The translations under genes were made by a program, and so were the position numbers. Below, piece after piece: positions 8,610 to 37,903 of a stretch of 64,000 bases of DNA (position 1 is the first letter of the stretch; each line of letters opens with the position of its first letter). Origin of the DNA: Verrucomicrobiota bacterium (GTDB lineage: Bacteria; Verrucomicrobiota; Verrucomicrobiia; Opitutales; JABDGR01). The DNA is taken from assembly GCA_048497935.1 (NCBI GenBank), contig JBEHYY010000005.1, forward strand, positions 46,118-110,117, read 5' to 3'. The notes under the pieces were generated by a model. The model was not told the DNA's origin and made no database searches. It saw only the letters and a program-made list of their open reading frames with translations.

Positions 8610-8635
8610 CTGGGACGGGAAGCGGTAGGCAACGG

Positions 8636-9259: not shown

Positions 9260-9260
9260 C
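9219..9260 (+). repeat. Direct repeat, left copy (3' half of tRNA-Met; att-like)
   Basis: tcataatcctttggttcccggttcaagtccgggcgggcccac, 42/42 identical to 10083..10124. Confidence 0.92.
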
Positions 9261-9354
9261 TTTATTCAAGCTATTGGTGTTAAGTGGGAACTATGACTGT
9301 TACCGCCACCGGCTTTTGCGCCCTCCAATCCTGACTGTGCCACTTTTCGGCTCC

Positions 9355-9924: not shown

Positions 9925-10082
9925 CTTGCATACAGTTTCCACGGAATGATACCGCCTGTCAATAATGGCCCTTAAAAGTTTGAGGGGCTGTTGCCGCCAG
10001 ACTACCTTGACCAATCTGCAACATATACAAATGGAAGGGGGCGATCCTGCTTCCCTGCGATTGAACAAACACCGAAAGGCAA

Positions 10083-10124
10083 TCATAATCCTTTGGTTCC
10101 CGGTTCAAGTCCGGGCGGGCCCAC
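10083..10124 (+). repeat. Direct repeat, right copy (orphan tRNA 3' half; att-like)
   Basis: Exact 42-bp copy of 9219..9260. No acceptor 5' strand or D arm lies upstream of it, so it is not a second tRNA gene. Confidence 0.92.
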
Positions 10125-10251
10125 CCATTTCAAAACTGGGTGCGAAAATGGGAAATCCGGCACTGTGCCAGTAATCACCGGCACGCCATGCTGCCCTGAA
10201 GAAATAGCCGCACTTCCGGGAGAACTTTCCCGGCAGGCTGATTCGCCTCCG

Positions 10252-19426: not shown

Positions 19427-19758
19427 CAATTATCAACGGTGGTGAACCCTGCACCCCAAACCGGGGCGGTGTGAAGAATTTACCCGACTTTTGCGGAAAA
19501 TTCCGCCGTCCGGCCAAAATTAACAGAAAATTGAAATGCTCTCCGGGGTGTTTTGCTTCGGAGAGCAGGCGTGAAAAAAATATTTTGCCGAAGCAACTGC
19601 TGCTCCGCAGTTGGATTTCCACCAAGCCGGCCCGGGAGCTTTCCCTCGTGGAAAAAGCGAATTGCTTTAAAAGCGCGTAAAATCGGGGCGCGGTCGTGGG
19701 CAAGCCTCACGTTCGGGGTTATGCTGCGGGAACTTGCGCTTCCGCAAATTCCCTCCTT

Positions 19759-21466: not shown

Positions 21467-21484
21467 TTGGTGTTTAAACACCAA
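21467..21484. promoter_or_regulatory. Perfect 18-bp palindrome TTGGTGTTTAAACACCAA (candidate dimeric transcription-factor site)
   Basis: Exact reverse-complement symmetry. Lies in the divergent region between the DUF3185 gene (-) and the poly-HAMP kinase (+). A sigma70-like TTGACG-N16/17-TACTCT follows at 21494..21521. Related sites are at 30300 and 36407. Confidence 0.5.
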
Positions 21485-21606
21485 TCGCGCCCTTTGACGG
21501 TTTTCAATACTGCCATACTCTAGGGAGCTGCCTCCACGTCACCTACTGCGGTAGTCTCAATTTTTCGGCGGGAAAACTCCACGCTGAAGGCAAAACCTCC
21601 TTCCTG

Positions 21607-24600
21607 ATGAAAAACGGACGCTCAACCGCGGTGCTTCCCCGCCCGCCTCAACAGGAAGCAAACGATTTTCTCAAGCAATTGGTGACCACCATGGCCGCCG
21701 TGGAAGAAGGCGACTTCTCCGTCCGCGTGCCGACAGAGTATGACGGCATCGAAGGCCGGGTGGCCGAGCGAATGAACGCCATCATCCGCCGCCTCGAGCG
21801 CTTCAATGTCAGTGTTTCCACTCTGCGGCGGCAGGTGGGCCAGGAAGGCAAGATCCATGTCCGCCTGCCCTTGGGTGATGCCGTGGGCAACTGGGCCGAA
21901 CGCATCGAGGCCATCAATTCCCTGGTCGATGAGCTTTCGCAGCCCACCATCGCCATGGGCCGTGTCATCGGCGCCGTGTCCAAGGGCGACTTGGCGCAGT
22001 CCATGCCGCTCGAGGTGAATGGCCTGCCCCTCAAGGGCGAATACCTGCGCACCGCGAAATTGGTCAACGGCATGGTCGGCCAGCTCGAGGCTTTCTCCGT
22101 GGAAGTGATTCGTGTGGCCCGCGAAGTCGGCACCGAAGGCAAGCTCGGCGGCCAGGCCAAGGTGAAGAGCGTGTCGGGCGTCTGGGCGGAATTGACGGAG
22201 TCCGTCAACCAAATGGCGGGTAATCTGACCGCGCAGGTGCGCAACATCGCCGATGTGACCATCGCCGTCGCCAATGGCGACTTGTCCAAAAAGATCACCG
22301 TGGACGTGCGCGGCGAAATCTTGCAGTTGAAAGAGGCCATTAATGTGATGGTGGACCAGCTCCGCTCCTTTGCCGCGGAGGTGACGCGCGTGGCGCGTGA
22401 CGTGGGCACGGAAGGCAAGCTTGGCGGCCAGGCCGTGGTGCCCGGCGTGTCCGGCACGTGGAAGGACTTGACGGACAACGTCAACTCCATGGCCAACAAT
22501 TTGACCACCCAGGTGCGCAATATCGCCGACGTGACAACCGCCGTTGCCAGGGGCGACCTCTCCCGCAAGATCACCGTGGACGTGAAGGGTGAAATTCTGG
22601 AATTGAAGGACACCATTAACACGATGGTGGACCAGCTCAATGGTTTTGCCTCGGAAGTCAGCCGTGTGGCCCGCGAAGTGGGCACCGAAGGCAAGCTCGG
22701 CGGCCAGGCCACCGTCCCCGGCGTCGCTGGCACGTGGAAGGACTTGACGGACAATGTGAATCTGATGGCCGCCAATCTGACCGGTCAGGTGCGCAACATC
22801 GCCAACGTGACCACGGCGGTGGCCAAGGGCGACTTGTCCCGCAAGATCACCGTGGACGTGAAGGGCGAAATTTTGGAGCTCAAGAACACCATCAACACCA
22901 TGGTGGACCAGCTCAATGGCTTTGCCTCGGAAGTGACGCGCGTCGCCCGCGAAGTGGGCACCGAAGGCAAGCTCGGCGGCCAGGCCACCGTCCCCGGCGT
23001 CGCCGGCACCTGGAAGGACTTGACGGACAACGTCAACTCCATGGCCAACAACCTGACCACCCAGGTGCGCAACATCGCCGACGTGACGACCGCCGTCGCC
23101 AAGGGCAACCTGTCCCGCAAGATCACCGTGGACGTGAAGGGTGAAATTCTGGAGTTGAAGAACACCATCAACACCATGGTGGACCAGCTCAATGCATTCG
23201 CCTCGGAGGTGACGCGCGTCGCCCGCGAAGTCGGCACCGAAGGCAAGCTCGGCGGCCAGGCCACCGTGCCCGGCGTCGCTGGCACGTGGGAGGACTTGAC
23301 GGACAACGTCAACTCCATGGCCAACAATTTGACCGGCCAGGTGCGCAACATCGCCGACGTGACGACTGCGGTCGCGAACGGCAACTTGTCCCGTAAAATC
23401 ACCGTGGACGCCAAAGGCGAAATTTTGGAGCTCAAAAACACCATTAACACCATGGTGGACCAGCTCAATGGCTTTGCCTCGGAAGTGACGCGCGTCGCCC
23501 GCGAAGTCGGCACTGAAGGCAAACTCGGCGGCCAGGCGGCGGTGCCGGGCGTGGCCGGCACCTGGAAGGACTTGACGGACAACGTCAATTCCATGGCCAA
23601 CAATCTGACCACCCAGGTGCGCAATATCGCGGAAGTGACCATCGCGGTGGCCAATGGCGACTTGTCCCGCAAGATCACCGTGGACGTGCGCGGCGAGATT
23701 TTGCAGTTGAAGGAAACCATCAACACCATGGTGGAGCAGTTGCGCGCCTTCGCCTCGGAAGTGACGCGCGTGGCCCGCGAAGTCGGCACCGAAGGCCGCC
23801 TGGGCGTGCAGGCCGTGGTGCCGGGCGTGGCCGGCACCTGGAAGGACTTGACCGACTCCGTCAACGCCATGGGCGCCAACCTGACGGGCCAGGTGCGCAA
23901 TATCGCCGAAGTGACGACCGCAGTGGCGAAAGGCGACCTTTCCCGCAAGATCACGGTGGACGTGAAGGGTGAAATTTTGGAGCTCAAGAACACCATTAAC
24001 ACGATGGTGGACCAACTGAATGGCTTTGCCTCGGAGGTGACGCGCGTGGCCCGCGAAGTCGGCACCGAAGGCAAGCTCGGCGGCCAAGCCACCGTGCCCG
24101 GCGTGGCCGGCACCTGGAAGGACTTGACCGACTCTGTCAACGTCATGGCCGCCAATCTGACGGATCAAGTGTCCGGCATCGTGAAGGTCGTGACGGCGGT
24201 GGCGAATGGCAACTTGCGCCAAAAACTCACTGTGGAGGCAAAGGGTGAAGTTGCCAGCCTGGCGGAGACGATCAACAACATGATTGATACGCTGGCCACC
24301 TTTGCCGAGCAGGTTACCAACGTGGCCCGCGAAGTCGGCGTCGAAGGCCGGTTGGGTGGCCAGGCCGTGGTGCCCGGCGTGGCCGGCACGTGGAAGGACT
24401 TGACGGACAACGTCAACTCCATGGCCAACAACCTGACCACCCAGGTGCGCGCCATCGCCGAGGTCGCCACCGCCGTGACCAAGGGCGACTTGACGCGCTC
24501 CATCCAAGTGGACACCCGCGGTGAGGTGGCCGAGTTGAAGGACAACCTCAACACGATGATTTATAACCTCCGCGTCACCACGGAAAGTAACCGCGAGCAG

Positions 24601-27297
24601 GACTGGCTGAAGACCAATCTGGCCAAATTCACCAGTATGTTGCAGGGCGAACGCGACCTCTACGCCGTGGGCAAAATGCTGCTCTCCGAGCTTTCCCCGC
24701 TGGTGAACGCCCACCAGGGCACCATTTACCAGATGGACGGATCCGACCCGGAGGAGGCCGTGCTGCGCCTGCTGGCCAGCTATGCCCAACAGTCGGGCAC
24801 GCCCGCGACCATCGGGCGCGGCGAAGGCCTGGTCGGCCAATGCGCCATCGAAAAACGCCGCGTGCTGCTCAGCGATGTGCAGAACGACTACACCCACATC
24901 AGCTCCAGCCTGGGCCGCGGCCTGCCGACGAGCATCGTGGTGCTGCCGGTGCTCTTTGAAGGCGAGGCCAAGGCGGTGATCGAGCTGGCTTCGCTCCATC
25001 CGTTCAGCATCAGCCACCTTGCCTTCCTTGAACAGTTGACGCAGTCCATCGGCGTCGTGCTCAACACGATTGAGGCCACCATGCGCACGGAGCGCCTGCT
25101 CCAGCAATCCCAACAGTTGACGGCTGAATTGCAGTCCCAGCAAAAGGAGCTGCAGCAGACCAATGAGGCCTTGGCGCAAAAAGCCCAGCAGCTAGCCGAG
25201 CAGAACGCCGAGGTCGAACGCAAGAACCGCGAAGTCGAGCAGGCCCGCCGCGCACTCGAGGAACAGGCGGCCGAGCTGGCGCTGACCTCGAAATACAAGT
25301 CGGAGTTCCTTGCCAATATGTCGCACGAGTTGCGCACCCCGCTGAACTCCATCCTGATTCTCGGCCAGCAATTGGCCGAGAACAACAGCGGCCACCTCTC
25401 CAAGAAGGAGATTGAATTCGCCCGCAACATCCACTCCGCCGGCTCCGACCTGCTGAACCTCATCACGGACATTTTGGACCTTTCGAAGATCGAGTCCGGC
25501 ACGGTCACGCTCGACATCGAGCAGATCACCTTCGTCTCGCTGCGCGATTCCATCGAGCGCAACTTCCGCCACATCGCCGACACGAAAAACCTTCCCTTCG
25601 AAATCAGGTTCAGCCCCGAGCTCCCGCCGGCTTTTACCACGGACACCAAGCGCCTCCAGCAGATTCTGAAGAACCTGCTCTCGAACGCCTTCAAATTCAC
25701 CGCGCAAGGCCATGTGCAGGTCGAGGTGGGCATCGCCCACGCGGGGTGGACCTCCGGCCATTCGCTGCTGGCGCGCGCTCCCTGCGTGATCTCGTTCTCC
25801 ATTAGCGACACCGGCATTGGCATCGCGCCGGAAAAGCAGAAGCTGATCTTCGAGGCCTTCCAGCAGGCGGACGCCGGCACCAGCCGCAAATACGGCGGCA
25901 CCGGCCTGGGCCTTTCCATCTCGCGTGAACTGGCCACCTTGCTCGGCGGGGAAATCCGCCTGCAAAGCACCGAAAACCAAGGCAGCACCTTCACGCTTTA
26001 CCTGCCCCTGAACTTCAGCGCCCCGACGACCGAGAAGATCGGCAACCGCACGACCAAGCCCATTGCGCTCCCCGCCCCGCGTGAAGAGATGATTCCGGAC
26101 GACCGCGACCAAATCCAGCCCGGCGACCGTACCCTGCTCATCGTGGAGGACGATCCCCACTATGCCCGCGTGTTGCTGGGCCTGGCCCGCAGCAAAGGCT
26201 TCAAGGCCATCCTGGCCATGCGCGGCGCCGAGGCGCTGGCCCGGGCACGCGAATTCCAGCCCTCCGCCATCACGCTCGACGTTTTCCTGCCCGATATGCT
26301 GGGCTGGACGGTGCTGAACAACCTCAAGCACAACCCCGCGACCCGCCACATTCCGGTGCAGATCATCTCCGTGGAGGAGGAACGCTCCCATGCTCTTTCC
26401 CACGGCGCCTTCGCCTACGCCATCAAGCCGGCCACTTCCGCCGAGCTCGATGGGTGCCTCGACCGGATCTGCAAATTTGTCGAGCCGCACGCCAAGCGCC
26501 TGCTCATCGTGGAGGACAACGACACCGAGCGGCAGAGCATCGTCGAATTCCTGCGGCATGATGACATCGAAATCTCCACCGCCGCCACCGGCCATGAGGC
26601 GGTCAACCTGCTGCTCGACCGCGCGTTCGACTGCTGTGTGCTCGACTTGCGGCTGCCCGACATGACCGGTTTTGAATTGCTGAAAAAATTGCAGCAAGAG
26701 CCCGGCCTGCGGGACATTCCGGTCGTGGTCTTCACGGGCAAGGAGCTCAACCCGGAAGAGGAACTGCAACTGCGGGTACTCGCCAAGACGGTGCTCGTCA
26801 AAGGCGTGCAATCGCCGGAGCGGCTCTTCGATGAGACGGCGCTCTTCCTGCACCGGGTCTTCCACCAGCTGCCCGAGGCCAAGCAAACCATGTTGAACCG
26901 CCTCCATGGCTCCAACGATGTGCTGCGCCACCGCAAGGTGCTGATTGTGGACGACGACGCCCGCAATATTTTCGCCCTCACGACCATTCTGGAAAACCAT
27001 GAGATGGAGGTCATCAGCGCCACCAACGGTCGCCAGGCCATCACACTCATCGAAGAGGTGCCGGACATCGATGTTGTCCTGATGGACATCATGATGCCTG
27101 AAATGGACGGCTACCAGACGATGCAGGAGATTCGCAAGAATCCGAAGTTCAGCGCCCTGCCCATCCTGGCGCTCACCGCCAAGGCGATGAAAGGCGACCG
27201 CGACAAATGCCTCGCGGCCGGCGCCTTTGACTACGTTGCCAAGCCGGTGGACGCCAGCGAGCTCCTCTCCCTGCTGCGCGTCTGGCTTTACCGCTAA
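21607..27297 (+). CDS. Cytoplasmic poly-HAMP hybrid sensor histidine kinase (HAMP array, GAF, HisKA, HATPase_c, three receiver domains)
   Basis: 1,896 aa.
- No hydrophobic TM segment.
- Nine regular 92-aa di-HAMP units, plus degenerate N-terminal ones.
- GAF block ([17 protein letters not shown]).
- H-box [16 protein letters not shown].
- G-boxes DTGIGI / [14 protein letters not shown].
- Receivers LLIVEDDPH..., LLIVEDNDT...DLRLPDMTG and [10 protein letters not shown]...[10 protein letters not shown]. Confidence 0.93.
22111..24594 (+). repeat. In-frame tandem array, 9 units with an exact 276-bp period (di-HAMP coding repeats)
   Basis: Unit consensus: [92 protein letters not shown]. Neighbouring units share exact nucleotide runs of at least 57 nt; for example, 22669.. 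equals 22945.., an offset of 276. Confidence 0.9.
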
Positions 27298-27320
27298 ATA
27301 GCCGCCCACCCTGCCCTCCC

Positions 27321-29066
27321 ATGGCCGATAACGCCAATATTCTGCTGGTGGACGATGAGTCCCGGAACCTCGACGTCCTCGAGGCGCTGTTGCAATCGCC
27401 CGAGTATCATCTGGTGCGCGCCCAGACGGCCGACCAGGCCCTGCTGCTGCTGCTGGAGCAGGAATTCGCCGTCATCGTGCTCGACATCAATATGCCCAGA
27501 ATCAGCGGCATTGAGCTCGCCAACCTCGTCAAACAACGCAAGCGCACCCAGCACATCCCCATCATCTTTTTGACGGCCTATTACCAGGAGGACAAAGACA
27601 TCCTCAAGGGCTACGTCAGCGGCGCGGTCGATTACCTGACCAAGCCCATCAACCCCGACATTCTCCGCTCAAAGATCGGTGTGTTTGTGGATTTGTTCCA
27701 CAAAAGCCGCGCCCTGGCCGCCAGCAACGCGGCACTGGAGTCCGAGATTGCCTTCCGCCAGGAGGCTGAGATGGCGCTGCGTGAGGCCAACAACGAGCTT
27801 GAGGCCCGGGTGGCGGCGCGCACGACCGAGCTAAACCGCCTCAACGACGAATTGCGCGCGCGCGAGGCCGCCTTGGCGGCCAGTGAAGCCCAGGCGCAGG
27901 CGGCATCCCGCGCCAAGGATGATTTCCTGGCCGCGCTCTCGCACGAGCTGCGCACCCCCCTGAACCCCGTGCTCCTGCTGGCCACCGAAGCGGCAAGCAA
28001 TGCCAAGCTGGCCCCCGAGGTGCGCGCGGATTTTGACATCATCGCCAAAAATGTGGCCCTGGAGGCGCGCCTGATTGACGACCTGTTGGACCTGACCCGC
28101 ATCACTCACGGCAAACTCACCCTCGATTTGCAGCCATGCGACATCCATACCTGCCTGCGCGATGCGCTGGAGATGACGACCGCGGATGCCCAGGCGAAAA
28201 AACTCGCGGTCGATGTGGCGTTGAATGCCCGCCGCAGCATGGTGCGCGGCGATGATGTCAGGCTAAAGCAGATTTTCTGGAACGTGGTGAAAAACGCCGT
28301 GAAATTCACCCCGAGCGGCGGCCATATAACCGTCACCACCTCGATCAACGACGCCGAGGAAATTGTCATTCAGGTGACCGACACCGGCATCGGCATGACG
28401 CCCACGGAGGTCAAACGCGTCTTCGCCGCCTTTTCCCAAGGCGACCATGCGCTGCAGCGTACACCCCACCGCTTTGGCGGCCTGGGCCTGGGCCTCGCCA
28501 TTTCCCAGATGATGGCCAAGCTGCAACTGGGCACCATCTCCGCCTTCAGCTCTGGCCGCGACCAAGGCACCACCCTCGTGATCAAGTTCCCCCTGCTCGC
28601 GGCTGAATCGCAAACTTCGGCCAAGCTGCCCAGTGGAAAGCCTACTCCATCGCCCTTTGCCGAGGGTTCCCCCGGCGGCCAGCTCCGCGTCCTGCTGGTG
28701 GAAGACCATCCTTCGACAGCGCAAACGTTGGCCCTTTTGCTCCAACGGCGCAAATTCGCCGTGACAGTGGCCAATTGCCTGGGCGAAGCACGGCTGTTTG
28801 CGCTGAAGGAGCGGTTCAGCCTCCTGATCTCCGATATCGGGCTGCCCGATGGCAATGGCTATGAGCTCATGGCGGAGTTGCGGGACAGCCAGGGTATCCT
28901 GGGTATCGCCTTGACCGGCTATGGCTCCGAGAGCGACATTCAGCGCAGCTTGGATGCGGGATTCTTCACCCAATTGACCAAGCCTGTCAGCGTCCAGTCC
29001 CTGGATGGCGCGCTTGCCGAGGCCGTTCGCCGCTTGAAGGCCAATTCCAGCCAGCTCAAAACCTAA
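27321..29066 (+). CDS. Hybrid histidine kinase with receivers at both ends (REC, coiled coil, HisKA, HATPase_c, REC)
   Basis: 581 aa. N-terminal REC (ILLVDDESRN...VLDINMPRISG), H-box [27 protein letters not shown], and C-terminal REC (VLLVEDHPST...ISDIGLPDGNG). Starts 24 nt after the upstream kinase, so likely in the same operon. Confidence 0.9.
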   Translation: MADNANILLVDDESRNLDVLEALLQSPEYHLVRAQTADQALLLLLEQEFAVIVLDINMPRISGIELANLVKQRKRTQHIPIIFLTAYYQEDKDILKGYVSGAVDYLTKPINPDILRSKIGVFVDLFHKSRALAASNAALESEIAFRQEAEMALREANNELEARVAARTTELNRLNDELRAREAALAASEAQAQAASRAKDDFLAALSHELRTPLNPVLLLATEAASNAKLAPEVRADFDIIAKNVALEARLIDDLLDLTRITHGKLTLDLQPCDIHTCLRDALEMTTADAQAKKLAVDVALNARRSMVRGDDVRLKQIFWNVVKNAVKFTPSGGHITVTTSINDAEEIVIQVTDTGIGMTPTEVKRVFAAFSQGDHALQRTPHRFGGLGLGLAISQMMAKLQLGTISAFSSGRDQGTTLVIKFPLLAAESQTSAKLPSGKPTPSPFAEGSPGGQLRVLLVEDHPSTAQTLALLLQRRKFAVTVANCLGEARLFALKERFSLLISDIGLPDGNGYELMAELRDSQGILGIALTGYGSESDIQRSLDAGFFTQLTKPVSVQSLDGALAEAVRRLKANSSQLKT

Positions 29067-30118
29067 TTGGTGGTGGCCAGCTGCTCGGCGGCGGTGCCCG
29101 CTGGCAGCGTGAAATAGAACAGGGAGGTATCGGTGCCGCGGCGCTCATAGCCACAGGTACCCTGGTGCAGGGTCACCAGGCGTTGCACCAGGCTCAGGCC
29201 TAATCCGCCGCCGGGTTGCTTGTGCAGGTGTTCAAAAGGGGAAAACAGCGCGGCTTTTCTTTCCGTGGGCACCGGCAGGCCGCAATTGGCGACCCAAAAC
29301 CGCATCTGCCCTTCGGTATAGTCCCAACCGAGCTGGATGGCGGCGGCCCGGCGGTTGTGCTTGAGCGCATTGGCAATCAAGTTGAACCAGACCACGTTCA
29401 ACCACGCGGCGACCCCCGTCACCTCCGGCCAGGTGGCCGGCTGCTGGATGGTGGCCTGCGCCTGCAGGATTTCCTCCTCCAATTCATGCAGCGCCGCCTC
29501 CACCACCGTGGACATCAGCAAGGACTCCACCGCGTGGGATTCGGTCGATGCCTTGATCACATCACTAAAACGCTCCACCAACCGGCTGATTTCCTGCGAA
29601 GCGCGGTTAATGCCCCGCAAGGGCATTTCGAGGGTGTCGCCCTCGCCCGTCATCAATTCGGTGATCAATTCCGCATTGAGGTGGATGCACTGGACCAGGT
29701 TCAGCAAATCGTGGCGAAAACGGCGATCGAGGGTCTTGAGGTCCCCGCGCAGGCGGAAGTTTTCCAGGAGCAATTCATGCTGCTGGACGGCCGCGCGGAA
29801 AATTTGCATGAGAATCTTGGCGTTGCATTCCGCCAGCGGCACATTGTCCCCGTAATCCGGCTGCCGGTCACCGAGGACCACCATGGCCCAACGCGGCTGG
29901 TCCGGCGACGCCAATTGCGCGGCCAGCGCCAGTTGCGCCTCATCCTGGTCGCTGATCACCAACAATTGCCGCTGGTTGTGGGTCTGTTGCGCCACCGCCA
30001 GTTCCACGCTCTTCACCGAGAAAAACTGGACGTCCCTAAACGCGCCGGACGAAGCCGCCTCCACCACCTCGGACAACGCCTCCGGCAAATCCACCAAAAA
30101 AATTGCTTCCGTTTGCAT
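29063..30118 (-). CDS. Soluble histidine-kinase-like protein with a degenerate receiver-like N-terminal domain
   Basis: 351 aa. Candidate H-box RFRHDLLNLVQCIH. HATPase_c blocks NLIANALKHN and GGGLGLSLVQRLVTLHQG. The N-terminal ~110 aa resemble a receiver (LLVISDQDE) but lack clear conserved partners. Its stop overlaps the convergent gene's stop by 4 nt. Confidence 0.8.
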   Translation of the reverse strand: MQTEAIFLVDLPEALSEVVEAASSGAFRDVQFFSVKSVELAVAQQTHNQRQLLVISDQDEAQLALAAQLASPDQPRWAMVVLGDRQPDYGDNVPLAECNAKILMQIFRAAVQQHELLLENFRLRGDLKTLDRRFRHDLLNLVQCIHLNAELITELMTGEGDTLEMPLRGINRASQEISRLVERFSDVIKASTESHAVESLLMSTVVEAALHELEEEILQAQATIQQPATWPEVTGVAAWLNVVWFNLIANALKHNRRAAAIQLGWDYTEGQMRFWVANCGLPVPTERKAALFSPFEHLHKQPGGGLGLSLVQRLVTLHQGTCGYERRGTDTSLFYFTLPAGTAAEQLATTN

Positions 30119-30299
30119 TGTAATATTTGTTGAATACTGTTGAGACGCCGGGTGGCCGAAAAATTGCTACCAGAAAATTGGCGGCATACTAAGGAACAAT
30201 CCTAAGGGAAGGATTGTTGCGACTGTGATAAATATAGCCAGACTCATTGTGTTTGCCAGAAGTTTGCTGGTGAAATTCCACCCAAGCGCGGTCCAATCT

Positions 30300-30317
30300 T
30301 TGATGCTTAAACACCAA
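30300..30317. promoter_or_regulatory. Variant of the 18-bp palindrome: TTGATGCTTAAACACCAA
   Basis: 16/18 identical to the site at 21467; the right arm is identical. Lies in the divergent region between the kinase-like gene (-) and the LuxR-type regulator (+). A TATAAT hexamer is at 30354..30359. Confidence 0.45.
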
Positions 30318-30404
30318 TTCTAAGGATTTCGCCCTAACGGGCTTGATTCTCGGTATAATTGGAGCGAATGTAGAGAGCTTCCGACATACGCCCACGCATA
30401 CAAC

Positions 30405-31088
30405 ATGATGAAAATTGTTGTCATTGATGACCATGCTCTCCTGCGCGAATTGCTGGTTACCGCCTGCAAGGGCGCAGTACCCGGATCTGTTGTGGATGGC
30501 GCGAACGACGCGACCTCGGGACTGAATTTGTGCCGGGAAAAGACACCCGATTTGATCATTCTCGATTTGGCCCTCCCCGACCGCGATGGGCTGGAGCTGT
30601 TGAATGATCTCCTGGCCGCCTGCCCTCGGGCGAAAATTATCGGCCTTTCCGGCCACACGGATGATTTCACGCTGCATCAAGTCTCCCAGTCCAAATTGCA
30701 CGGCTTTGTGGATAAGAAGGAGCAGACCATCGAGCAACTGGCCCAGGCCATCCAGGCGGTCATGGGCGGGGAGCGGTACTTCTCGCCTGCCGCGATGAAG
30801 GTGCTCTACTCCCAACGCAATGACCCCGTGGCCTTCAATAAAATCCTCTCGAAGCGCGAGCAGGAACTGCTGCATTACTTCGGCCGCGGGTTGGGCAACG
30901 TGGAGATTGCCGGCATGGTCAACCTCAGCGAATTCACCGTGCGCAACCACCGCTGCCGTATCATGGCCAAGCTGGGTGTGCGCACCACGGCGGAACTCAT
31001 CCGCTATGCCTTGGAAAAGGGCTTTGTGCGGGTGGATATGCTGGAGCGAGGGGATACCCCGCCCCCCACCCCGCCCCGGCGCGCTTGA
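30405..31088 (+). CDS. NarL/FixJ (LuxR-type HTH) family response regulator
   Basis: 227 aa. REC domain (IVVIDDH...IILDLALPDRDG...GLSG...FVDK) plus a C-terminal LuxR HTH (LSKREQELLHYFGRGLGNVEIAGMVNLSEFTVRNHRCRIMAKLGV). Confidence 0.92.
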   Translation: MMKIVVIDDHALLRELLVTACKGAVPGSVVDGANDATSGLNLCREKTPDLIILDLALPDRDGLELLNDLLAACPRAKIIGLSGHTDDFTLHQVSQSKLHGFVDKKEQTIEQLAQAIQAVMGGERYFSPAAMKVLYSQRNDPVAFNKILSKREQELLHYFGRGLGNVEIAGMVNLSEFTVRNHRCRIMAKLGVRTTAELIRYALEKGFVRVDMLERGDTPPPTPPRRA

Positions 31089-31100
31089 CCTTCTTACTGG

Positions 31101-31310
31101 TTAACGGCGGGCACGGACGGCCTTGGGACGCGCGGACGGCTGCAACTTCGATGAGAAGTCGCGCAGGCACGGCAGCATGATATACCGGCTGGTGCTGGAG
31201 CGGAGGGAGCTGACGACACCTGAAGCGCTTTCCGGCAGGGTTTCCATCCGGAAGCCATCTTCAGTGGAGCGGCGCGGGCGCGCCAGTTGGTAGGTGGTGG
31301 TGGTATGCAT
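31101..31310 (-). CDS. Hypothetical small protein (69 aa)
   Basis: ATG-initiated ORF with GC-rich third codon positions. Begins 11 nt after the stop of the upstream small ORF. No family recognised. Confidence 0.3.
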   Translation of the reverse strand: MHTTTTYQLARPRRSTEDGFRMETLPESASGVVSSLRSSTSRYIMLPCLRDFSSKLQPSARPKAVRARR

Positions 31311-31321
31311 GGTAAAGAGGA

Positions 31322-31510
31322 CTAGTGGTTGAACGGTGTTTCAGCGCCGGAAATGCCGGCACAGGCGTCTTCATCGCGGGCCAGCAGTTGCCTGATTTCC
31401 GCCGGGCTCCATTGGCGTTCCTCGCCATAAACAACGGCGGCATTGTCTTCGGAGTGCGCGGTGAAATGCTCCTGGCTGATGACGAGTATTTTTCGATTGG
31501 AGGATGACAT
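31322..31510 (-). CDS. Hypothetical small protein (62 aa)
   Basis: ATG at 31510 (MSSSNRKILVISQEHF...). Codon usage is compatible with the genome. No family recognised. Confidence 0.35.
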   Translation of the reverse strand: MSSSNRKILVISQEHFTAHSEDNAAVVYGEERQWSPAEIRQLLARDEDACAGISGAETPFNH

Positions 31511-31663
31511 GAAAATAAGTGGTTGAGGTTGCAATACGCCGGAGGAAGCGGGTCAAATCCGGCGACGAAGGATTATTTTCCCTCGCTTGAGTTGATATTA
31601 AATCCGGAGGGACAGTCGTTTGCGATTTTTTGTCTTGGTGATATTGCATCAAGACAACATGGG

Positions 31664-32881
31664 CTAATTGGCCCACGTATTTGGCAGGGCCGCTTGGCTG
31701 TCGGAATGAAGAACTTGGTGGATGGTCTGGAGCAGTTGCGCGGCCCGATAAGGCTTGGGCAAAAAGGCCTGCGCGCTTGCCTGCGCCGCCCCCACCAGTC
31801 CCTCCTTCACACATAGCCCGCTCGTGGCGATGACTTTCACGTCGGGGTTGATGGCCCGCAGTTGCCTGATGGCTTCCGTACCATTGAGGAGGGGCATGCA
31901 GACATCCGTGAAAACCAGCTCAATTTTCTCCCTCTGCTGCAAATAAAGCGCCACGGCATCGGCCCCATTGGAGGCGGTGAGCACGTTATAGCCAAAAACA
32001 CGCAGCGTTTGTGCGGTGACGGCCAGAATCGCCTCCTCATCGTCCACCACCAGCACCCATTCCCCATGCCCGCGGGCCAGCGGGGCATTTTCCGTGACAA
32101 AATCCGCCGCGGCTCCCGGGGCTGCCGGCAGGTAAACCTTGAAGGTCGATCCGGCGCCCACCTCGCTTTCCATGGTCAATTGCCCATGGTGGGCTTTGAC
32201 AATCGCGTCACACACAAACAGCCCGGCGCCTTGGTGGTTACCCGTTTTGGTGGTGTAAAATGGCTCGAAAATTTTTTCCTGCAGGCATTCAGCGATGCCG
32301 CAACCCGTATCGGTAATGTCGATGCGCACATACCGGGCGCCATGGGTGCCGGGCTCAAGAAAGGCGCAATCATCATCCAAGACGACATTTTCAGCCGCGA
32401 TGACCAGAACCCCGCCGGGGGTCATGGCCTCATTGGCATTCTGGCAAAGGTTGAGCAGCGCATGGTGAAGCTCCGGGACCGAGCCAAGCACCGGCCAAAT
32501 CTCAGGGGCTATTTGCACCTCGATGCGGATGCGGCCGCCTACATCAGCCTCGACATACTTCCTCAAGTCTCGCAACAGGGCGGGAACGACGACTGGGCCG
32601 CGCAGCTTGCCCGCCCCTTCCACCAACGCGACAATCTGCTGGATTAGGCGCGGAGCCTGGCGGGTGTGCCGCTCAATGACGGATAATATCTCGAGGATCT
32701 CAGACTCTGGCGGTGCCTGTTCACGCAAAAGCTCCAGGGATGTGGTGATGGGGGCCAGCACGTTGTTAAGGTCATGCACCAGCCCCTCGGCCAGAATGGA
32801 TAAGTTTTTTCGGATTTGCCCGTTGACCGGAGGCCAGACCGTCAAAGGAAATTCCGCCGCGGCGGTGATGCTGCTATTCAT
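31664..32881 (-). CDS. Hybrid histidine kinase (short N-terminus, HisKA, HATPase_c, C-terminal REC)
   Basis: About 405 aa from ATG 32881; the ORF is open to 32920. H-box LVHDLNNVLAPI, N/G boxes LCQNANEAM and DTGCGI ... GAGLFVC, and REC VLVVDDEEAIL...FTDVCMPLLNG. No sensor domain and no TM segment. Confidence 0.88.
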   Translation of the reverse strand: MNSSITAAAEFPLTVWPPVNGQIRKNLSILAEGLVHDLNNVLAPITTSLELLREQAPPESEILEILSVIERHTRQAPRLIQQIVALVEGAGKLRGPVVVPALLRDLRKYVEADVGGRIRIEVQIAPEIWPVLGSVPELHHALLNLCQNANEAMTPGGVLVIAAENVVLDDDCAFLEPGTHGARYVRIDITDTGCGIAECLQEKIFEPFYTTKTGNHQGAGLFVCDAIVKAHHGQLTMESEVGAGSTFKVYLPAAPGAAADFVTENAPLARGHGEWVLVVDDEEAILAVTAQTLRVFGYNVLTASNGADAVALYLQQREKIELVFTDVCMPLLNGTEAIRQLRAINPDVKVIATSGLCVKEGLVGAAQASAQAFLPKPYRAAQLLQTIHQVLHSDSQAALPNTWAN

Positions 32882-33075
32882 AAAGCAACCGCACGGTAGT
32901 CTAAATTTCCCCCTTCGCAAGGGACGCAGTCTCCGTAAATTTGATGGCTTATGACCACCGGCTTCTGGGGGGTTTTAACTATCTCTTCGGGAATTTTCAC
33001 GTAAATGAGGAGTTATTACTCGATATACAGGGAGTTTTTTGCCGATTGTGCATTACTAATAGCACTTTGGCGTCT

Positions 33076-33468
33076 ATGCAGAATACATCCGCCGCAGCCC
33101 GCCTGCCGTCGCGCCGCATCCTGCTTGTCGATGACAACGAGGAGGCCGCGCAATTGCTGGCCAAACTTTTACGCATCACCGGCCATGATGTGGTGGTCAG
33201 TGCCACGGGCGCCGACGCGCTGCATCAGGTGGATGCATTTCGTCCGCAATTCATCCTGCTCGATCTTGGCCTCCCCGGCATGGACGGTGGCGAAATCGCC
33301 CGGCAAGTGCGGGGCCGGCCGGATTGCAGCGAAATCAAAATCATCGCCATCAGTGGTTATCGACCCGAGAGCATTGACCAGAACCTGGCCGTCATGTTTG
33401 ACGCTTATTTGGTCAAACCCGTTGGCATGGGGCTGCTGGCAAAAACCATGGCGTTAATTGATGTTTGA
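33076..33468 (+). CDS. Single-domain response regulator (REC only)
   Basis: ATG at 33076. RILLVDDNEEAAQLL...ILLDLGLPGMDG...ISGY...YLVKP. Confidence 0.88.
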   Translation: MQNTSAAARLPSRRILLVDDNEEAAQLLAKLLRITGHDVVVSATGADALHQVDAFRPQFILLDLGLPGMDGGEIARQVRGRPDCSEIKIIAISGYRPESIDQNLAVMFDAYLVKPVGMGLLAKTMALIDV

Positions 33469-33608
33469 AGCCAGGTGCTTGTTAATCATGTGCTAATCCG
33501 CGGCGGCCCAATGGCAGGGTGCAGATGGATGGGCTATCGTATGAGACAGGAGTCGAGACGACGGCCAATTCCGGACTCGTTTCACCTTCACCGCAAACAT
33601 CCGACATC

Positions 33609-33836
33609 ATGAAAACCACCGGCATTCAAACCGATCGCTCACCGTTGGGCGAAATCATCAAAGGCAACTGGGATATCGTCAAAGGCAGCCTCAAACAGAA
33701 GTATGCCAAGCTGACCGACAACGACCTCCGCTACCAGGAGGGCAAGGAGGAGGAACTGCTCGGCCGTCTCGAGAAGGCGACCGGCCGCACCCGCCGCGAT
33801 ATCGAGCGCGCCATTCGCGAATCCTGCAATTGCTAG
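33609..33836 (+). CDS. CsbD-family stress-response protein
   Basis: ATG at 33609. GNWDIVKGSLKQKYAKLTDNDLRYQEGKEEELLGRLEKATGRTRRDIE is the CsbD signature. Confidence 0.85.
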   Translation: MKTTGIQTDRSPLGEIIKGNWDIVKGSLKQKYAKLTDNDLRYQEGKEEELLGRLEKATGRTRRDIERAIRESCNC

Positions 33837-33860
33837 CGCGCTGGCAAGCCCCCCGATGAC

Positions 33861-33890
33861 AAGACCGCCTTTCGAGGCGGTCTTTTTTTT
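33861..33890 (+). terminator. Rho-independent terminator after the CsbD gene
   Basis: 9-bp stem aagaccgcc / ggcggtctt, a 6-nt loop, then a run of T. Confidence 0.75.
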
Positions 33891-33916
33891 GCCAGTCGTT
33901 TGCCACCCGCAGGATT

Positions 33917-34543
33917 TCATTTCTTCGACTGCTCCCCTTGGGAGATTTGCCGCATATTCCGGCCAGTCAGCACCGAAAGCTCGCGCCCGGTGCGCCGGAT
34001 GGGCGTCGTGCGCCCGCCTTCGGGATTCTTGATCACCAGCCAGTTTATCTTGCGGCCCTCGGTGCGCAGGCGCACTAATGTCCATTCGCCCCGGCACTTT
34101 TCCCCAATCAGGGCGAAGTGCAGTTTACCCTTTTCCAAGGCGTCGGCGGCCGAGATTTCAGCGGTGGCGTAGATGCCCCGGTCCCAGAGCATCACCGTGC
34201 CAGCCCCGTAATTGCCCTCGGGTATGACGCCCTCAAAGGAGCCGTAGTCCAACGGATGGTCTTCCACCTCAATCGCGAGGGCACGTCGGCCCGGCTTGAG
34301 CGGCAAGCCCTTGGGCACGGCCCAGGACTTGAATACTCCCTCCACCTCCAGGCGGAGATCGTAGTGCAAACGCGTGGCGTTGTGCTTTTGAATGACGAAT
34401 TTTGCCAGACCTGTGGAAGGCTGCCCGCCTTGGGGTTCGCCGCTCTGGCTCAAATTACGCTTGGCGTGATAGGCCTGTAGCGGGGCAGCGGGGGCTTTGG
34501 CGGGCCGTCCACGCGCGCGCTTTGGTGTGTTTTCGGTGCCCAT
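33917..34543 (-). CDS. Standalone DNA ligase D 3'-phosphoesterase (PE) domain protein
   Basis: LQAYHAKRNLSQSGEPQG ... FVIQKHNATRLHYDLRLE ... KSWAVPKGLP ... VEDHPLDYGSFEGVIPEGNYGAGTVMLWDRG ... GKLHFALIGEKCRGEWTLVR matches the LigD PE domain throughout. ATG at 34543; an in-frame TTG at 34588 is an alternative start. Confidence 0.85.
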   Translation of the reverse strand: MGTENTPKRARGRPAKAPAAPLQAYHAKRNLSQSGEPQGGQPSTGLAKFVIQKHNATRLHYDLRLEVEGVFKSWAVPKGLPLKPGRRALAIEVEDHPLDYGSFEGVIPEGNYGAGTVMLWDRGIYATAEISAADALEKGKLHFALIGEKCRGEWTLVRLRTEGRKINWLVIKNPEGGRTTPIRRTGRELSVLTGRNMRQISQGEQSKK

Positions 34544-34610
34544 GGCGCTTTTCTCCGAATCAACTGCTCCTCCCTGCGCGCCTGGCAATGAGTGCCTCGT
34601 TGGCGCAGAA

Positions 34611-34802
34611 TTATTTTTCCCTTTTAGTCTTATGCCTGCCTCCCCCGCTCTTGCGACCGCCGCCTGTTCGGCTATTCACCGTGCGCCAGGCGCGCTCTTC
34701 CGCCTTATCGTGCGTGTCGCCGCGCGATTCATAACCTTCCGCGATATGCTCAGCCATTCGCTTTTGCTTGTTGGTGTAGCTGCTTTTGTCTCCCTGTGGC
34801 AT
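34611..34802 (-). CDS. Small basic protein (63 aa), conserved-looking; function unknown
   Basis: ATG start. MPQGDKSSYTNKQKRMAEHIAEGYESRG...RAWRTVN followed by a G/K/R-rich tail. Tightly spaced within the minus-strand operon. Confidence 0.6.
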   Translation of the reverse strand: MPQGDKSSYTNKQKRMAEHIAEGYESRGDTHDKAEERAWRTVNSRTGGGRKSGGGRHKTKREK

Positions 34803-34847
34803 AAGCGTATGGATTTAGGGGTTGGTGCGAGGTAGAGATTCGGGTTG

Positions 34848-35330
34848 TTAGAGGCGACCTTCCTCCAGGTCATAAACGTCCAGAAACCGGTAAACCACCC
34901 GTCCCTTGGGCACGCACTGCGGAATGTATTCTTCGAGGTAGATCTGAAGGTCCATGGGCAGGCCGGAGATGTCCATGTCACGCTGCTGGTTGTTCCATTG
35001 GATGATCTCCGCGCTTGTCCGCCGATGGCTGTTCTCACGGATCCAGCGATCAACCTCCTCATCCGAGGCCCCAGTCGCGATGTAATCCCGCAACTTCTGG
35101 TAGTCGATTTTGGCGTACTTCAGCCACATCTGGTCCAGGGGGCAATTCGTGTGGTACTCTCCCGCCTGGCCCACCAAGTCCGCCCGGCACTTATCCACCG
35201 CGCGCGCAGCCAAGACGTATCCCCCCAGGCGCTCCCGGGGGCTGCGCGGGGGCTTGCCCGGGGCGCGCAGGTCCGGGGCAAGCTCCCGCACGCGTTCCAA
35301 ATTGGCTGAAGTTGTTGGCGCGGAATTCAT
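34848..35330 (-). CDS. DUF5069-like protein
   Basis: 160 aa. PRSPRERLGGYVLAARAVDKCRADLVGQAGEYHTNCPLDQMWL resembles the DUF5069 signature as I recall it. Confidence 0.7.
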   Translation of the reverse strand: MNSAPTTSANLERVRELAPDLRAPGKPPRSPRERLGGYVLAARAVDKCRADLVGQAGEYHTNCPLDQMWLKYAKIDYQKLRDYIATGASDEEVDRWIRENSHRRTSAEIIQWNNQQRDMDISGLPMDLQIYLEEYIPQCVPKGRVVYRFLDVYDLEEGRL

Positions 35331-35358
35331 AGCGGATGGATTTGAAGGTTAGCCGTGT

Positions 35359-36207
35359 TTAGCGAGGCAATGGCCCAAAGGGCGGCGGCAAAACTTTGGC
35401 GCCCGGCACTCTGAGGTTAGTGCTGCTGTAAATTTCTGCGGGCGTGATGGTCGTGGAGTCGTAATAGCCGCGGTTGCGGTCGTCATCCGGAGTCAGCTTG
35501 GTGGCCGAGACGGCCGCCCCGACATCCAGGCCGCTGGCAGTCTGGTAAAGAATCACATCAACGGTATTATCGATGGTCGTCTTCACGGCGGAGTCGTTGC
35601 CGGCTACGGCCCGGAGGTTGCCGCTCCAGATGAATTTGCTGTCCGTCAGCGTCTGGAGCGCCTTGTCGCTCATCAGAAAGGCCACGCTACGCACATGGCT
35701 GCCACCGACTTGCGCGCCCACGCTGCCACCCGCCACATTATAGAAAACCGGACCGCGCCAGGTGCCATCCGAAGCCTTCCGGTAGGCAATCGCCTTGCCG
35801 CCCGTGCCGCCGACAATGGCGGAGCCAGACCAGCGGTCGACAAACACCACGGCCTTGGCCAGCGAAACCACGGAGTTGGAAACTCCCGACGCAGGCTGTT
35901 TTTGCAATGTATCAAACCAGGCCCAGGCATCGTTGACCTGCTTAATGCTCTCGCTGCGGTCGGCGGAATGGTCGCTATTGGCGCCAATGGAACCCGCAGT
36001 GGCGGTTCCTGCCGTCCGGGCCGTACCCGTGCCGGTGGTGGAATCTGCCGGCGGCGGAGTCATGCTCGTCACCCGGTTTGCTTCGGCATCCGCCTGCGGC
36101 TGGCCGGGTCGGGTTTCAGCTGCGTGGCTGGAGGCCAGGAAAAGGGAGCCAACTGCAAGCAGAGCGACGGCCGGCAGAACGCGATTCATAGGGATGTGGG
36201 TTTTCAT
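35359..36207 (-). CDS. Secreted SYLF (DUF500 / Ysc84-like lipid-binding) domain protein
   Basis: Signal peptide MKTHIPMNRVLPAVALLAVGSLFLASSHA, then a T/A/G-rich linker. The SYLF core follows: AKAVVFVDRWSGSAIVGGTGGKAIAYRK...GPVFYNVAGGSVGAQVGGSHVRSVAFLMSDKAL. In-frame ATGs also occur at 36246 and 36189. Confidence 0.8.
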   Translation of the reverse strand: MKTHIPMNRVLPAVALLAVGSLFLASSHAAETRPGQPQADAEANRVTSMTPPPADSTTGTGTARTAGTATAGSIGANSDHSADRSESIKQVNDAWAWFDTLQKQPASGVSNSVVSLAKAVVFVDRWSGSAIVGGTGGKAIAYRKASDGTWRGPVFYNVAGGSVGAQVGGSHVRSVAFLMSDKALQTLTDSKFIWSGNLRAVAGNDSAVKTTIDNTVDVILYQTASGLDVGAAVSATKLTPDDDRNRGYYDSTTITPAEIYSSTNLRVPGAKVLPPPFGPLPR

Positions 36208-36406
36208 GTCTTTGTGAGGATGGGTTAATGGTGATTGCAAATTCATATTATGTTCAACGTAGCATCGTTTTTTTCGCTTTTCAAAAATGCCGGGAAATAT
36301 AACAAACGATTCGCAAATGCGGACTGGGGCGTTGCCCTGCGTCCTCCTGAATCATTCAGGCCATTTGCCCATCGCGCCGTGCCATCTGGAAAGAATCGCG
36401 AGAAAG

Positions 36407-36424
36407 TCAGTGCTTAAACACCAA
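36407..36424. promoter_or_regulatory. Variant of the 18-bp palindrome: TCAGTGCTTAAACACCAA
   Basis: The right arm and centre (TGCTTAAACACCAA) are identical to the site at 30304..30317. Lies in the divergent region between the SYLF operon (-) and the DUF892 gene (+). TTGGTC-N16-TAAAAT follows immediately (36426..36453). Confidence 0.4.
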
Positions 36425-36608: not shown

Positions 36609-37124
36609 ATGCCTAAGTCGTCACGCAATCTCCGCGATGTTCTCGTGGAGGAAGTTCAGGATCTCTACAATGCGGAAACCCAGCTGGTCGCCGCACTGCC
36701 CAAAGTGGCCAAGGCTGCCCACGATCCCAAGTTCAAGTCCGCTGTGGAAAGCCATCTGCAACAAACCAAAGGCCATGTCGTCCGCCTCGAACGGGTGGCA
36801 GAACTGCTGGGCGCTTCGCCCAAAGGCCGCGTTTGCCAGGCCATGAAAGGGCTTGTCAAAGAAACCGGCGAGCGGATCAAAGCTGGCAAGCCCAGCGCCG
36901 CCCGGGATGCCAGCCTCATTGGCGCGGCGCAAAAAGTGGAACATTATGAAATCGCCGGCTATGGCACGGTGCGCAGTTTTGCGGAGTTCCTCAACCTGGC
37001 TGATGTCGCTGAACTGCTCGATGTCACGCTCGAGGAAGAGGCTGCGACAGACCGCAAGCTCACCGACCTCTCGGCTTCCATCAACGCCGACGCGGAATCA
37101 TCCAACGGCCGCAAGGAAGCCTAA
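36609..37124 (+). CDS. DUF892 (YciE/YciF-like ferritin-fold) stress protein
   Basis: 171 aa. LRDVLVEEVQDLYNAETQLVAALPKVAKAA ... HLQQTKGHVVRLERV ... KVEHYEIAGYGT. Confidence 0.88.
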   Translation: MPKSSRNLRDVLVEEVQDLYNAETQLVAALPKVAKAAHDPKFKSAVESHLQQTKGHVVRLERVAELLGASPKGRVCQAMKGLVKETGERIKAGKPSAARDASLIGAAQKVEHYEIAGYGTVRSFAEFLNLADVAELLDVTLEEEAATDRKLTDLSASINADAESSNGRKEA

Positions 37125-37151
37125 CACAAACCAATTGCCAGCCTTTCTTCC

Positions 37152-37196
37152 AAAAGGCGGGGAGGCCCAGTCCGGGCTTTCTCGCCTTTTGTTTTT
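37152..37196 (+). terminator. Probable rho-independent terminator after the first DUF892 gene
   Basis: Outer stem aaaaggcg / cgcctttt enclosing a GC-rich imperfect hairpin, followed by ttttgttttt. Confidence 0.55.
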
Positions 37197-37263
37197 CCAA
37201 GCGGAGTAAGGGTTGAAGGCCATGCCCGTGTTACGCCGCCTTACGGGATTTCTTTGATTAATA

Positions 37264-37281
37264 AACACTAATCAGGATGGT
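37264..37281. promoter_or_regulatory. Degenerate relative of the palindrome: TTGATTAATAAACACTAA
   Basis: 13/18 match to TTGGTGTTTAAACACCAA, with 9/10 in the right arm. Also part of a local inverted repeat, TGATTA-N8-TAATCA (37265..37284). Sits ~55 nt upstream of the second DUF892-like gene. Confidence 0.25.
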
Positions 37282-37333
37282 GGATATATCCAAGCCGCTA
37301 CGCGATAATTGTCTCACCCCACCCCCTTTCTCA

Positions 37334-37903
37334 ATGTCCACGCCACTGTCCCGCATCACCTCTCTTTCTGATCTGCTCGCCGAGGAGATTGCCGAACTCT
37401 CCACCCTTGAGCGTCATTTGCTCCAACAGTTGCCTCCGCTCATTGCCACTATTGAGGAGAGCGATTTGCGCTATGCCCTTGTTTTTTACCTTCGGCAAAT
37501 TGATCGCCATCTCCAGCAGCTGACACCGCTGCTCAAGGCCTCCACACTAAATGCTGCTGAAGCAGCGGCCACTTTTGATCTCAAGGAGGACTTGCATACC
37601 CTGGACCCTGAGTGCTCGGACAGTGTGCGCGAGGCGGCTTTGATTTTCATTGTGACCAAGGTGGAGCATTATTTGACCGCTGGTTACCTTAATGCCTGCG
37701 CCTATGCCCGCCTCCTTAAGCAGGATGAAATTGCCCGGTTGCTGCTATCCCGTCTGGAGGTGGAGGCGGGGTTTCTAAATTGCCCGGCGTTACTAGTGCG
37801 TATGTTGCGTTTCTCGCATTCCAAGGACTTCAAACAATTGGCAGAATCCGAATACCTGCCGACCAAGTCCTCGCCGCCCGAGAAGGATTTTACGATGAAT
37901 TGA
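37334..37903 (+). CDS. Divergent DUF892-like protein
   Basis: Aligns by eye with the upstream DUF892 protein (LSDLLAEEIAELSTLERHLLQQLPPL ... KVEHYLTAGYLNA). ATG at 37334 fits that alignment; the track ORF starts at 37277. Confidence 0.65.
   Translation: MSTPLSRITSLSDLLAEEIAELSTLERHLLQQLPPLIATIEESDLRYALVFYLRQIDRHLQQLTPLLKASTLNAAEAAATFDLKEDLHTLDPECSDSVREAALIFIVTKVEHYLTAGYLNACAYARLLKQDEIARLLLSRLEVEAGFLNCPALLVRMLRFSHSKDFKQLAESEYLPTKSSPPEKDFTMN

Follow-up and report, generated by a model that had tools for sequence, protein, structure and literature searches.

A conserved 18-bp palindrome beside a NarL/FixJ-type regulator gene of Verrucomicrobiota and its predicted role as an operator of signalling genes

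Dimers of NarL/FixJ-family response regulators bind A/T-centred inverted repeats of 16-20 bp, such as the 7-2-7 sites of NarL, the 20-bp box of DosR and the lux boxes. DosR/DevR of Mycobacterium tuberculosis recognizes the Dos box, an A/T-centred 20-bp inverted repeat with TT..GG and CC..AA at its outer positions that is found upstream of or beside the -35 element, and its targets, which include its own operon, form a stress or dormancy regulon. VraR/LiaR, the cell-envelope stress regulators of Firmicutes, bind inverted repeats as phosphorylation-induced dimers and autoregulate their own operon, kinase included. To our knowledge, next to nothing is known of how free-living Verrucomicrobiota regulate transcription. 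Here we describe an 18-bp palindrome, TTGGTGTTTAAACACCAA, found in a 64,000-nt stretch of DNA from a Verrucomicrobiota bacterium of the order Opitutales (GenBank assembly GCA_048497935.1, contig JBEHYY010000005.1, positions 46,118-110,117; hereafter the window), where three related sites (sites 1-3) lie near an operon of histidine kinases, a gene for a NarL/FixJ-type response regulator and several genes of stress-associated types. Judged from its conservation, the palindrome is a real cis-regulatory site that is kept across many uncultured Opitutaceae beside the regulator and kinase genes, and the regulator is its predicted binder.

The regulator shares with VraR/LiaR the architecture of a receiver (REC) domain (Pfam PF00072, E = 6e-20) followed by a C-terminal GerE-type helix-turn-helix (HTH) domain (PF00196, E = 2e-14), and the latter is supported by full-length alignment to the VraR, DevR and NarL structures. 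Its closest solved structures are those of VraR/LiaR (best, 5hev, E = 3.5e-24), DevR/DosR of the same NarL/FixJ family (second best, 3c3w, E = 9e-20) and NarL. In an alignment of 42 members, D54, S82 and K104 are invariant, an acidic pair is present at residues 8-9, the recognition-helix segment TVRNHR is invariant and the wider segment LSELTVRNHRCRxMAKLG is nearly so; the alignment also suggests that the true start is the second ATG, at 30408. The NCBIfam equivalog models of the NarL, UvrY, MctR and FimZ type all score far below their cut-offs, the best being MctR with 122 versus 300 bits, and the regulator is therefore not an orthologue of any named regulator. By sequence comparison it belongs to an uncharacterised subfamily found mostly in Opitutales/Opitutaceae: homologues at 60-75% identity are numerous, and the named ones are mostly from this group (Lacunisphaera, Didemnitutus), while others are labelled Verrucomicrobia only. 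Compared with the VraR/LiaR systems, the recognition helix reads TVRNHRCRIMAKLG here and TVKTHVSNILAKLE in VraR, the motif differs too, no LiaF/LiaS-type partner is present, and the kinase set is entirely different. Compared with the Dos box, the motif is 18 rather than 20 bp long, its core bases differ (GGTGTTT/AAACACC), and it is placed at a fixed 9-nt gap from the predicted -35 element rather than overlapping it. The organism is moreover a verrucomicrobium, its upstream kinases are poly-HAMP hybrids and not DosS/DosT, and its regulator, which reaches no equivalog cut-off, is not a DosR orthologue.

An earlier note on the window, made from the sequence alone, had reported three related sites between divergently transcribed genes, and all three are present, each intergenic, with Pfam identities and open reading frame (ORF) orientations that agree with the gene labels it gave (Table 1). 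Site 1 is the canonical form of the element. In site 2 the right arm, on the side of the regulator gene, is perfect and both mismatches fall in the left arm; in site 3 the right arm, on the DUF892 side, is likewise perfect, with all three mismatches in the left arm. The 11-mer TTAAACACCAA, which had been pointed out as exact in the three sites and rarely expected, gives four strand hits in the window, all of them at these sites, against 0.01 expected from dinucleotide shuffles of the window. No further 18-mer within four mismatches of the palindrome was found in the 64-kb window; the 18-mers at 9085 and 10642 have five mismatches, which is chance level, and were rejected as sites. With a weight matrix trained solely on the orthologous sites of other genomes, the window sites being left out, sites 1, 2 and 3 score 35.4, 28.6 and 21.3 bits, respectively, against a maximum of 11.2 bits in 10 shuffled windows. 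The sites have the dyad symmetry, the intergenic setting and the over-representation of operators.

Conservation was followed across loci (designated L plus a number) that were collected by exact-protein look-up of syntenic loci and by a metagenome scan with the 42-sequence regulator alignment, which contributed 80 further loci; a scan of a genome collection with the single regulator protein returned just distant homologues from other phyla. Regulators with at least 58% identity were taken as orthologues and those below 58% as more distant homologues, and distinct upstream DNA was counted once. A site is found within 400 nt upstream of the regulator gene in 35 of about 44 orthologues and in none of the 26 more distant homologues. 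In most orthologues it is 30-112 bp upstream of the regulator start codon and is perfect or has one mismatch, and such sites persist across regulators that are merely 58-75% identical. The palindrome also remains with the regulator gene where the neighbouring genes change, for instance to those encoding a TonB-dependent receptor, a CheR-like protein or a KaiC-like protein. Synteny of the kinase operon with the regulator gene is kept in L065, L068, L069, L077 and L080, and the poly-HAMP operon is preceded by a perfect site in all four distinct loci whose upstream region was captured (L068, L069/L072, L077 and L080), which strongly supports the link to the adjacent kinase cluster that had been suggested. 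Elsewhere in the regulator loci, no site with three or fewer mismatches was found, save in the upstream regions of poly-HAMP operons and before a second TonB-receptor gene (L106, position 7358), and the unrelated control loci, 948 kb in all, contained a single independent hit. The sole near-matches among these controls, TTGGTTTTTAAACACCAT and TTGGTTTTTAAAGACCAT, are at the same orthologous spot of two related genomes of Hyphomonadaceae (L048, position 19807; L049, position 19815). Phylogenetic footprinting, a check proposed in the earlier note, thus gave a site that is near-invariant at orthologous promoters between diverged flanks, its information content being limited to the 18-mer and a TTTGAC sequence beside it; this is how an operator, as the palindrome had been called, would be expected to behave.

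The TTTGAC sequence has a fixed place. TTGAC(C/G/T) occurs exactly 9 nt beyond the palindrome, on one side of it, in 43 of 43 non-identical orthologous instances, and the aligned orthologous sites have the consensus tTGGTGTTTAAACACCAA-tcgC...c-TTTGACc. The palindrome arm on the TTGAC side, AAACACCAA, is nearly invariant and the best conserved part of the module, while the distal arm varies at its outermost two bases; past TTGAC, orthologues show just a weak TGnnnT signal about 17 nt further on. TTGAC agrees with the -35 consensus of sigma-70, and we infer that it is the -35 element of a promoter whose -10 element, at site 1, may be the TACTCT listed in Table 1. Its constant distance on one side of the palindrome argues for a directional, activator-type promoter module. 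With TTGAC as the -35 element, the palindrome would extend from about -62 to -45, be centred near -53.5 and leave the core promoter uncovered. In being a dyad of 16-20 bp suited to a GerE-type HTH dimer, in holding a fixed phase to a -35 hexamer and in lying in an intergenic region common to divergent genes, the module resembles NarL 7-2-7 and LuxR-type sites at class I and class II sigma-70 promoters; its centre, as predicted from sequence, would be one helical turn upstream of the class II position of -42.5 and 8 bp downstream of the class I position of -61.5.

The fixed register also bears on whether the element is a protein operator at all. A perfect palindrome could form a short hairpin, and several copies occur in one region, as might be the case for a repeated extragenic palindrome, the ends of a mobile element such as a miniature inverted-repeat transposable element, or a transcribed hairpin. 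The window, however, contains just three copies in 64 kb, all at promoters and without similarity between their flanks; the element is kept at orthologous positions across regulators that are 58-75% identical and at 9 nt from TTGAC on one side, and no T-run follows the palindrome, which, being upstream of the putative -35 element, would not be in the transcript. We therefore reject such origins on copy number, unconserved flanks and fixed register, and consider them exceedingly improbable.

Table 1. Features of the window that are discussed in the text (positions count from the first nucleotide of the window)
Feature	Position	Strand	Basis and remarks
Site 1	21467..21484		TTGGTGTTTAAACACCAA; perfect 18-bp palindrome
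Site 2	30300..30317		TTGATGCTTAAACACCAA; 2 mismatches to the palindrome; between the soluble kinase and regulator genes
Site 3	36407..36424		TCAGTGCTTAAACACCAA; 3 mismatches; between the SYLF-DUF5069-LigD_N operon (-) and the DUF892 gene (+)
Weak site 4	37254..37271	+	TTGATTAATAAACACTAA; likeness to the motif confined to the right arm
TTGACG, -35-like hexamer	21494..21499	+	Read from sequence; separated by exactly 9 nt from the downstream end of site 1 and directed towards the kinase operon
TACTCT, candidate -10	21516..21521	+	Putative; 16-nt spacer after TTGACG; not called by the strict consensus scan
NarL/FixJ (LuxR-type HTH) response regulator	30405..31088	+	Pfam Response_reg and GerE; predicted binder
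Kinase operon	21607..29066	+	Pfam; proposed target of site 1
Poly-HAMP/GAF hybrid histidine kinase with three receiver domains	21607-27297	+	Pfam
REC-HisKA-HATPase-REC kinase	27321-29066	+	Pfam
Soluble histidine kinase, 351 amino acids	29063..30118	-	HATPase_c (Pfam); H-box FRHDLLNL and receiver-like N-terminus (translation); divergent from the regulator gene
SYLF/Ysc84 - DUF5069 - small ORF - LigD 3'-phosphoesterase operon	33917..36246	-	Pfam; divergent from site 3, candidate target
DUF892 (YciE-like ferritin-fold) gene	36609..37124	+	Pfam; possible lineage-specific target of site 3
Second DUF892 gene	37334..37903	+	Pfam; start probably ATG 37334, not 37277 of the longest ORF

We consider it probable that the regulator, bound to the palindrome as a phosphorylated dimer, switches on the neighbouring TTGAC promoters of the genes for its own kinases, forming a positive feedback, and that in the lineage of the window the regulator gene and DUF892/SYLF have additional sites of non-canonical form. 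A dimer of the NarL/FixJ-type regulator would occupy TTGGTGTTTAAACACCAA and, in its phosphorylated form, would activate transcription from this site, centred near -53.5. The conserved targets would be signalling genes, namely the poly-HAMP hybrid-kinase operon through site 1 and the operon that diverges from the regulator gene, so that a positive feedback loop would be closed; depending on the lineage, the latter operon contains the gene for the soluble kinase or those for a TonB receptor, a DUF4154 protein and a kinase. Sites 2 and 3, together with a marginal half-site before the second DUF892 gene, would probably extend the regulon to the regulator gene and a small number of stress-type genes, with a different promoter geometry.

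Several observations weigh against this proposal, and the first of them concern the promoters. The predicted -35 element is near consensus and the -10 region is weak, with the usual A at position 2 mostly missing, which is the opposite of many activator-dependent promoters and sets the module apart from NarL/LuxR-type promoters. No TTGAC is found at 9 nt from site 2 or site 3, on either side, nor did a sigma-70 consensus scan yield a convincing promoter beside them. Thus, the earlier view that each site is just upstream of a -35/-10 pair is borne out at site 1 (TTGACG-16-TACTCT) but fails at sites 2 and 3 because the 9-nt geometry is absent there, and a fixed register to a predicted core promoter is shared by site 1 and the 43 orthologous composites and not by sites 2 and 3. 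A regulator that binds the site and represses, or is neutral, at constitutive TTGAC promoters, the site providing negative feedback, might look like this: a promoter with a near-consensus -35 element may need no activator, and sites 2 and 3 are not placed like activator sites. In all 43 composites, however, a gap of 9 nt separates the site from the -35 element, and the site, lying upstream, never covers this element, the spacer or the -10 element; this position is usual for activators and not for steric repressors and therefore disfavours repression, which we regard as improbable, and the poor -10 region is also consistent with a need for activation. On positional grounds, the effect of the site is predicted to be activation, and site 2, being at the orthologous position of a conserved site, is very likely functional, with a geometry that differs in this lineage.

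Other reservations concern the pairing of regulator and site. The assignment is drawn from co-localisation, and all loci were retrieved through the regulator gene, so that the counts cover regulator-bearing loci. Where the module lies between the regulator gene of orthologues and its divergent neighbour, it is in most cases oriented towards the neighbour and not towards the regulator gene. Covariation between recognition helix and motif was not seen; with an invariant helix in all aligned members, the comparison carries no information and does not account for the motif variants in L078, L092 and L131. A recognisable site is also missing in about nine orthologues, including L062, L070, L069 and L098. 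The palindrome could then be the operator of a different, unlinked transcription factor, with the NarL-type regulator as a target and not the binder; co-localisation and a composite promoter that faces away from the regulator in most orthologues would fit such an arrangement, and genomes that carry the motif without the regulator could not have appeared in our sample. We judge this unlikely, however, since the motif stays with the regulator gene as neighbours differ, is absent from the 26 loci of more distant homologues, is an 18-bp A/T-centred inverted repeat of the type suited to GerE/LuxR-type HTH dimers, and occurs in a conserved cluster in which domain searches found no other DNA-binding domain. 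An invariant recognition helix also matches a near-invariant motif. We thus infer, from these comparisons, that the regulator encoded next to the sites binds the palindrome: of the earlier suggestion that it is the binder, the co-occurrence with orthologues and its standing as the sole DNA-binding protein of the cluster are borne out, and binding itself is predicted.

The orthologues with missing or degenerate sites show various changes. In L062, which is on a 1.5-Mb contig, an insertion sequence with a DDE_Tnp_1 transposase (9104-9880) is directly upstream of the regulator gene and has replaced the usual region of the palindrome. In L070, from Lacunisphaera, one central base pair is deleted (TGGTGTTTAACACCA, 9932-9949), which changes the half-site spacing by 1 bp; its proximal arm is still 9 nt from TTGACC. 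L069 and L098 have degenerate sites upstream of the regulator gene, and relatives closest to the window also have degenerate variants, e.g., ATAGTGTTTAAACCTCAG in L078, L092 and L131.

By tblastn mapping of the orthologues, the divergent gene faced by the module is most often a homologue of the 351-amino-acid protein of the window, whose H-box FRHDLLNL and receiver-like N-terminus mark it as a soluble histidine kinase. In other lineages the module faces an operon for a TonB-dependent receptor (in places followed by DUF4154, a CHASE8 kinase and an HATPase), PAS/CHASE8 kinases, or a CheR-like or KaiC-like gene. A TonB-dependent receptor gene divergent from the regulator gene was observed in several lineages (L071, 2079-9576; L106, about 5100-9880; L110; L105; L116). 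The order in L071 is TonB receptor, DUF4154, CHASE8-HAMP-PAS kinase and a 345-amino-acid soluble kinase, and L106 has two TonB-receptor genes, each with its own perfect palindrome-N9-TTGAC module (N9, nine nucleotides).

The regulator gene appears to have its own promoter. A second conserved box, (G)GCTCYGCRCTTGC, is located about 40-55 nt upstream of the regulator start codon and is followed about 17 nt later by TAnnnT (L076, L079, L082, L084, L086, L088-L091, L094, L097, L102-L106, L110-L113 and L116), and from sequence this CTCYGCRCTTGC box and the TAnnnT would form that promoter. Many orthologues start with TTG about 9-12 nt past TAnnnT, which suggests very short leaders. A sigma-54 reading of the GGCTCYGCRCTTGC box was rejected: the GG-N10-GC spacing fits many loci, and the GG at -24 is missing in L070, L089 and L102; the GGCTCYGCRCTTGC box is more likely an ordinary TTGC -35 region. 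The distance between the second box and the palindrome is variable, ranging from about 8 to 65 nt, and the two abut in a few lineages only (L089, L094, L102 and L103), where a single site could serve both divergent promoters. Direct autoregulation of the regulator, as it had been proposed, is plausible, but it is not what conservation shows, because the orthologous module faces away from the regulator gene.

A further claim was that the sites define a stress regulon, and as a general statement it did not hold. A motif before orthologous stress genes (DUF892, CsbD, SYLF and LigD) was found in the window (site 3 and the marginal site 4) and in L092 only. Orthologous support for site 3 comes from L092 alone, a syntenic relative in which a variant composite, TTGGTGCTAGAGCACCAA-N9-TTGACC at 5443, is located between a hybrid kinase-REC-CsbD-DUF892 operon and a DUF892 gene. 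DUF892 upstream regions without the motif were found in L071 and L130 and in the Opitutaceae loci L152, L158 and L159, about 20 kb of each of the latter three having been seen; DUF892 was accordingly rejected as a conserved target, and the link to stress genes is lineage-specific. SYLF and CsbD genes are found downstream of the regulator gene in L077, L080, L083 and L104, as synteny only. DUF3185, which is divergent from the poly-HAMP operon in the window, was likewise rejected as a conserved target: orthologous poly-HAMP operons do not adjoin it, and in L068 its place is taken by DUF748.

CsbD, DUF892/YciE, SYLF and LigD-type genes are gene types that are under sigma-B or EcfG control elsewhere. 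It is conceivable, if doubtful, that regulator and palindrome act as master switch for a general-stress-like response of Opitutaceae. A multi-kinase network (poly-HAMP, REC-kinase, CHASE8 and TonB-receptor-linked) would then converge on the regulator, which would amplify its own kinases and, in some lineages, turn on genes of these types. If true, a two-component system would here do the work for which alternative sigma factors are normally used. A literature search gave nothing on the motif, on a regulator of this kind in Verrucomicrobia or on response regulators that control stress genes there, and the hits to GTGTTTAAACAC were primers with a PmeI site.

Three weaker relatives of the palindrome had also been listed. 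The one assigned to 37264..37281, upstream of the second DUF892 gene, was misplaced by its coordinates and corresponds to weak site 4 of Table 1, which at 13.9 bits is marginally above the shuffle maximum. The one at 33472..33489, upstream of CsbD, scores 3.3 bits or less, which is chance level, as does the neighbouring 33458, and the one near 19664 (GCTTTAAAAGC) has just a TTTAAA centre in common with the palindrome and is unrelated. A promoter is predicted exactly 9 nt 3' of weak site 4 (TGGATA at 37281-37286, a 17-nt spacer and GATAAT at 37304-37309), and this was the sole pair above shuffle expectation in the sigma-70 consensus scan of the sites. The start of the second DUF892 gene is probably that given in Table 1, because this predicted promoter is upstream of that ATG and homology begins after about residues 19-30 of the long form: the Pfam match begins at residue 30 and tblastn matches begin at residues 19-29. 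A strong terminator-like hairpin of 18 pairs followed by a T-run (37151-37191) was observed after the first DUF892 gene, which makes it probable that the two DUF892 genes are transcribed separately.

Outside the regulatory island, two giant ORFs are found on either side, both on the minus strand: one of 2901 amino acids (10724-19429) and one of more than 8612 amino acids (38162-64000) that runs beyond the window edge. After a tRNA-Met gene (9187-9260), the GC content drops to 49% (versus about 62%) over some 0.8 kb, and this low-GC stretch carries an ORF of 243 amino acids (9355-10086, minus strand). The last 40 nt or so of the tRNA-Met gene (cataatcctttggttcccggttcaagtccgggcgggccca) are duplicated, at about 9220-9259 and at 10084-10123, the latter copy ending the low-GC stretch. 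With these att-like direct repeats, the region 9187-10125 resembles a small integrated element, or what remains of one.

Taken as predicted here, the element is an ordinary response-regulator operator with positive feedback, newly defined in a poorly studied group, and involves no new mechanism. It provides a sharply defined and testable operator, TTGGTGTTTAAACACCAA-N9-TTGAC, together with a candidate regulator that has an invariant recognition helix and a predicted conserved core regulon that consists of its own kinases. It also suggests a promoter architecture for the phylum, in which a TTGAC -35 element would be combined with a weak, non-canonical -10 element. The module may thus serve as an entry point for DNA affinity purification sequencing, electrophoretic mobility shift assays or reporter work in cultivable Opitutaceae.

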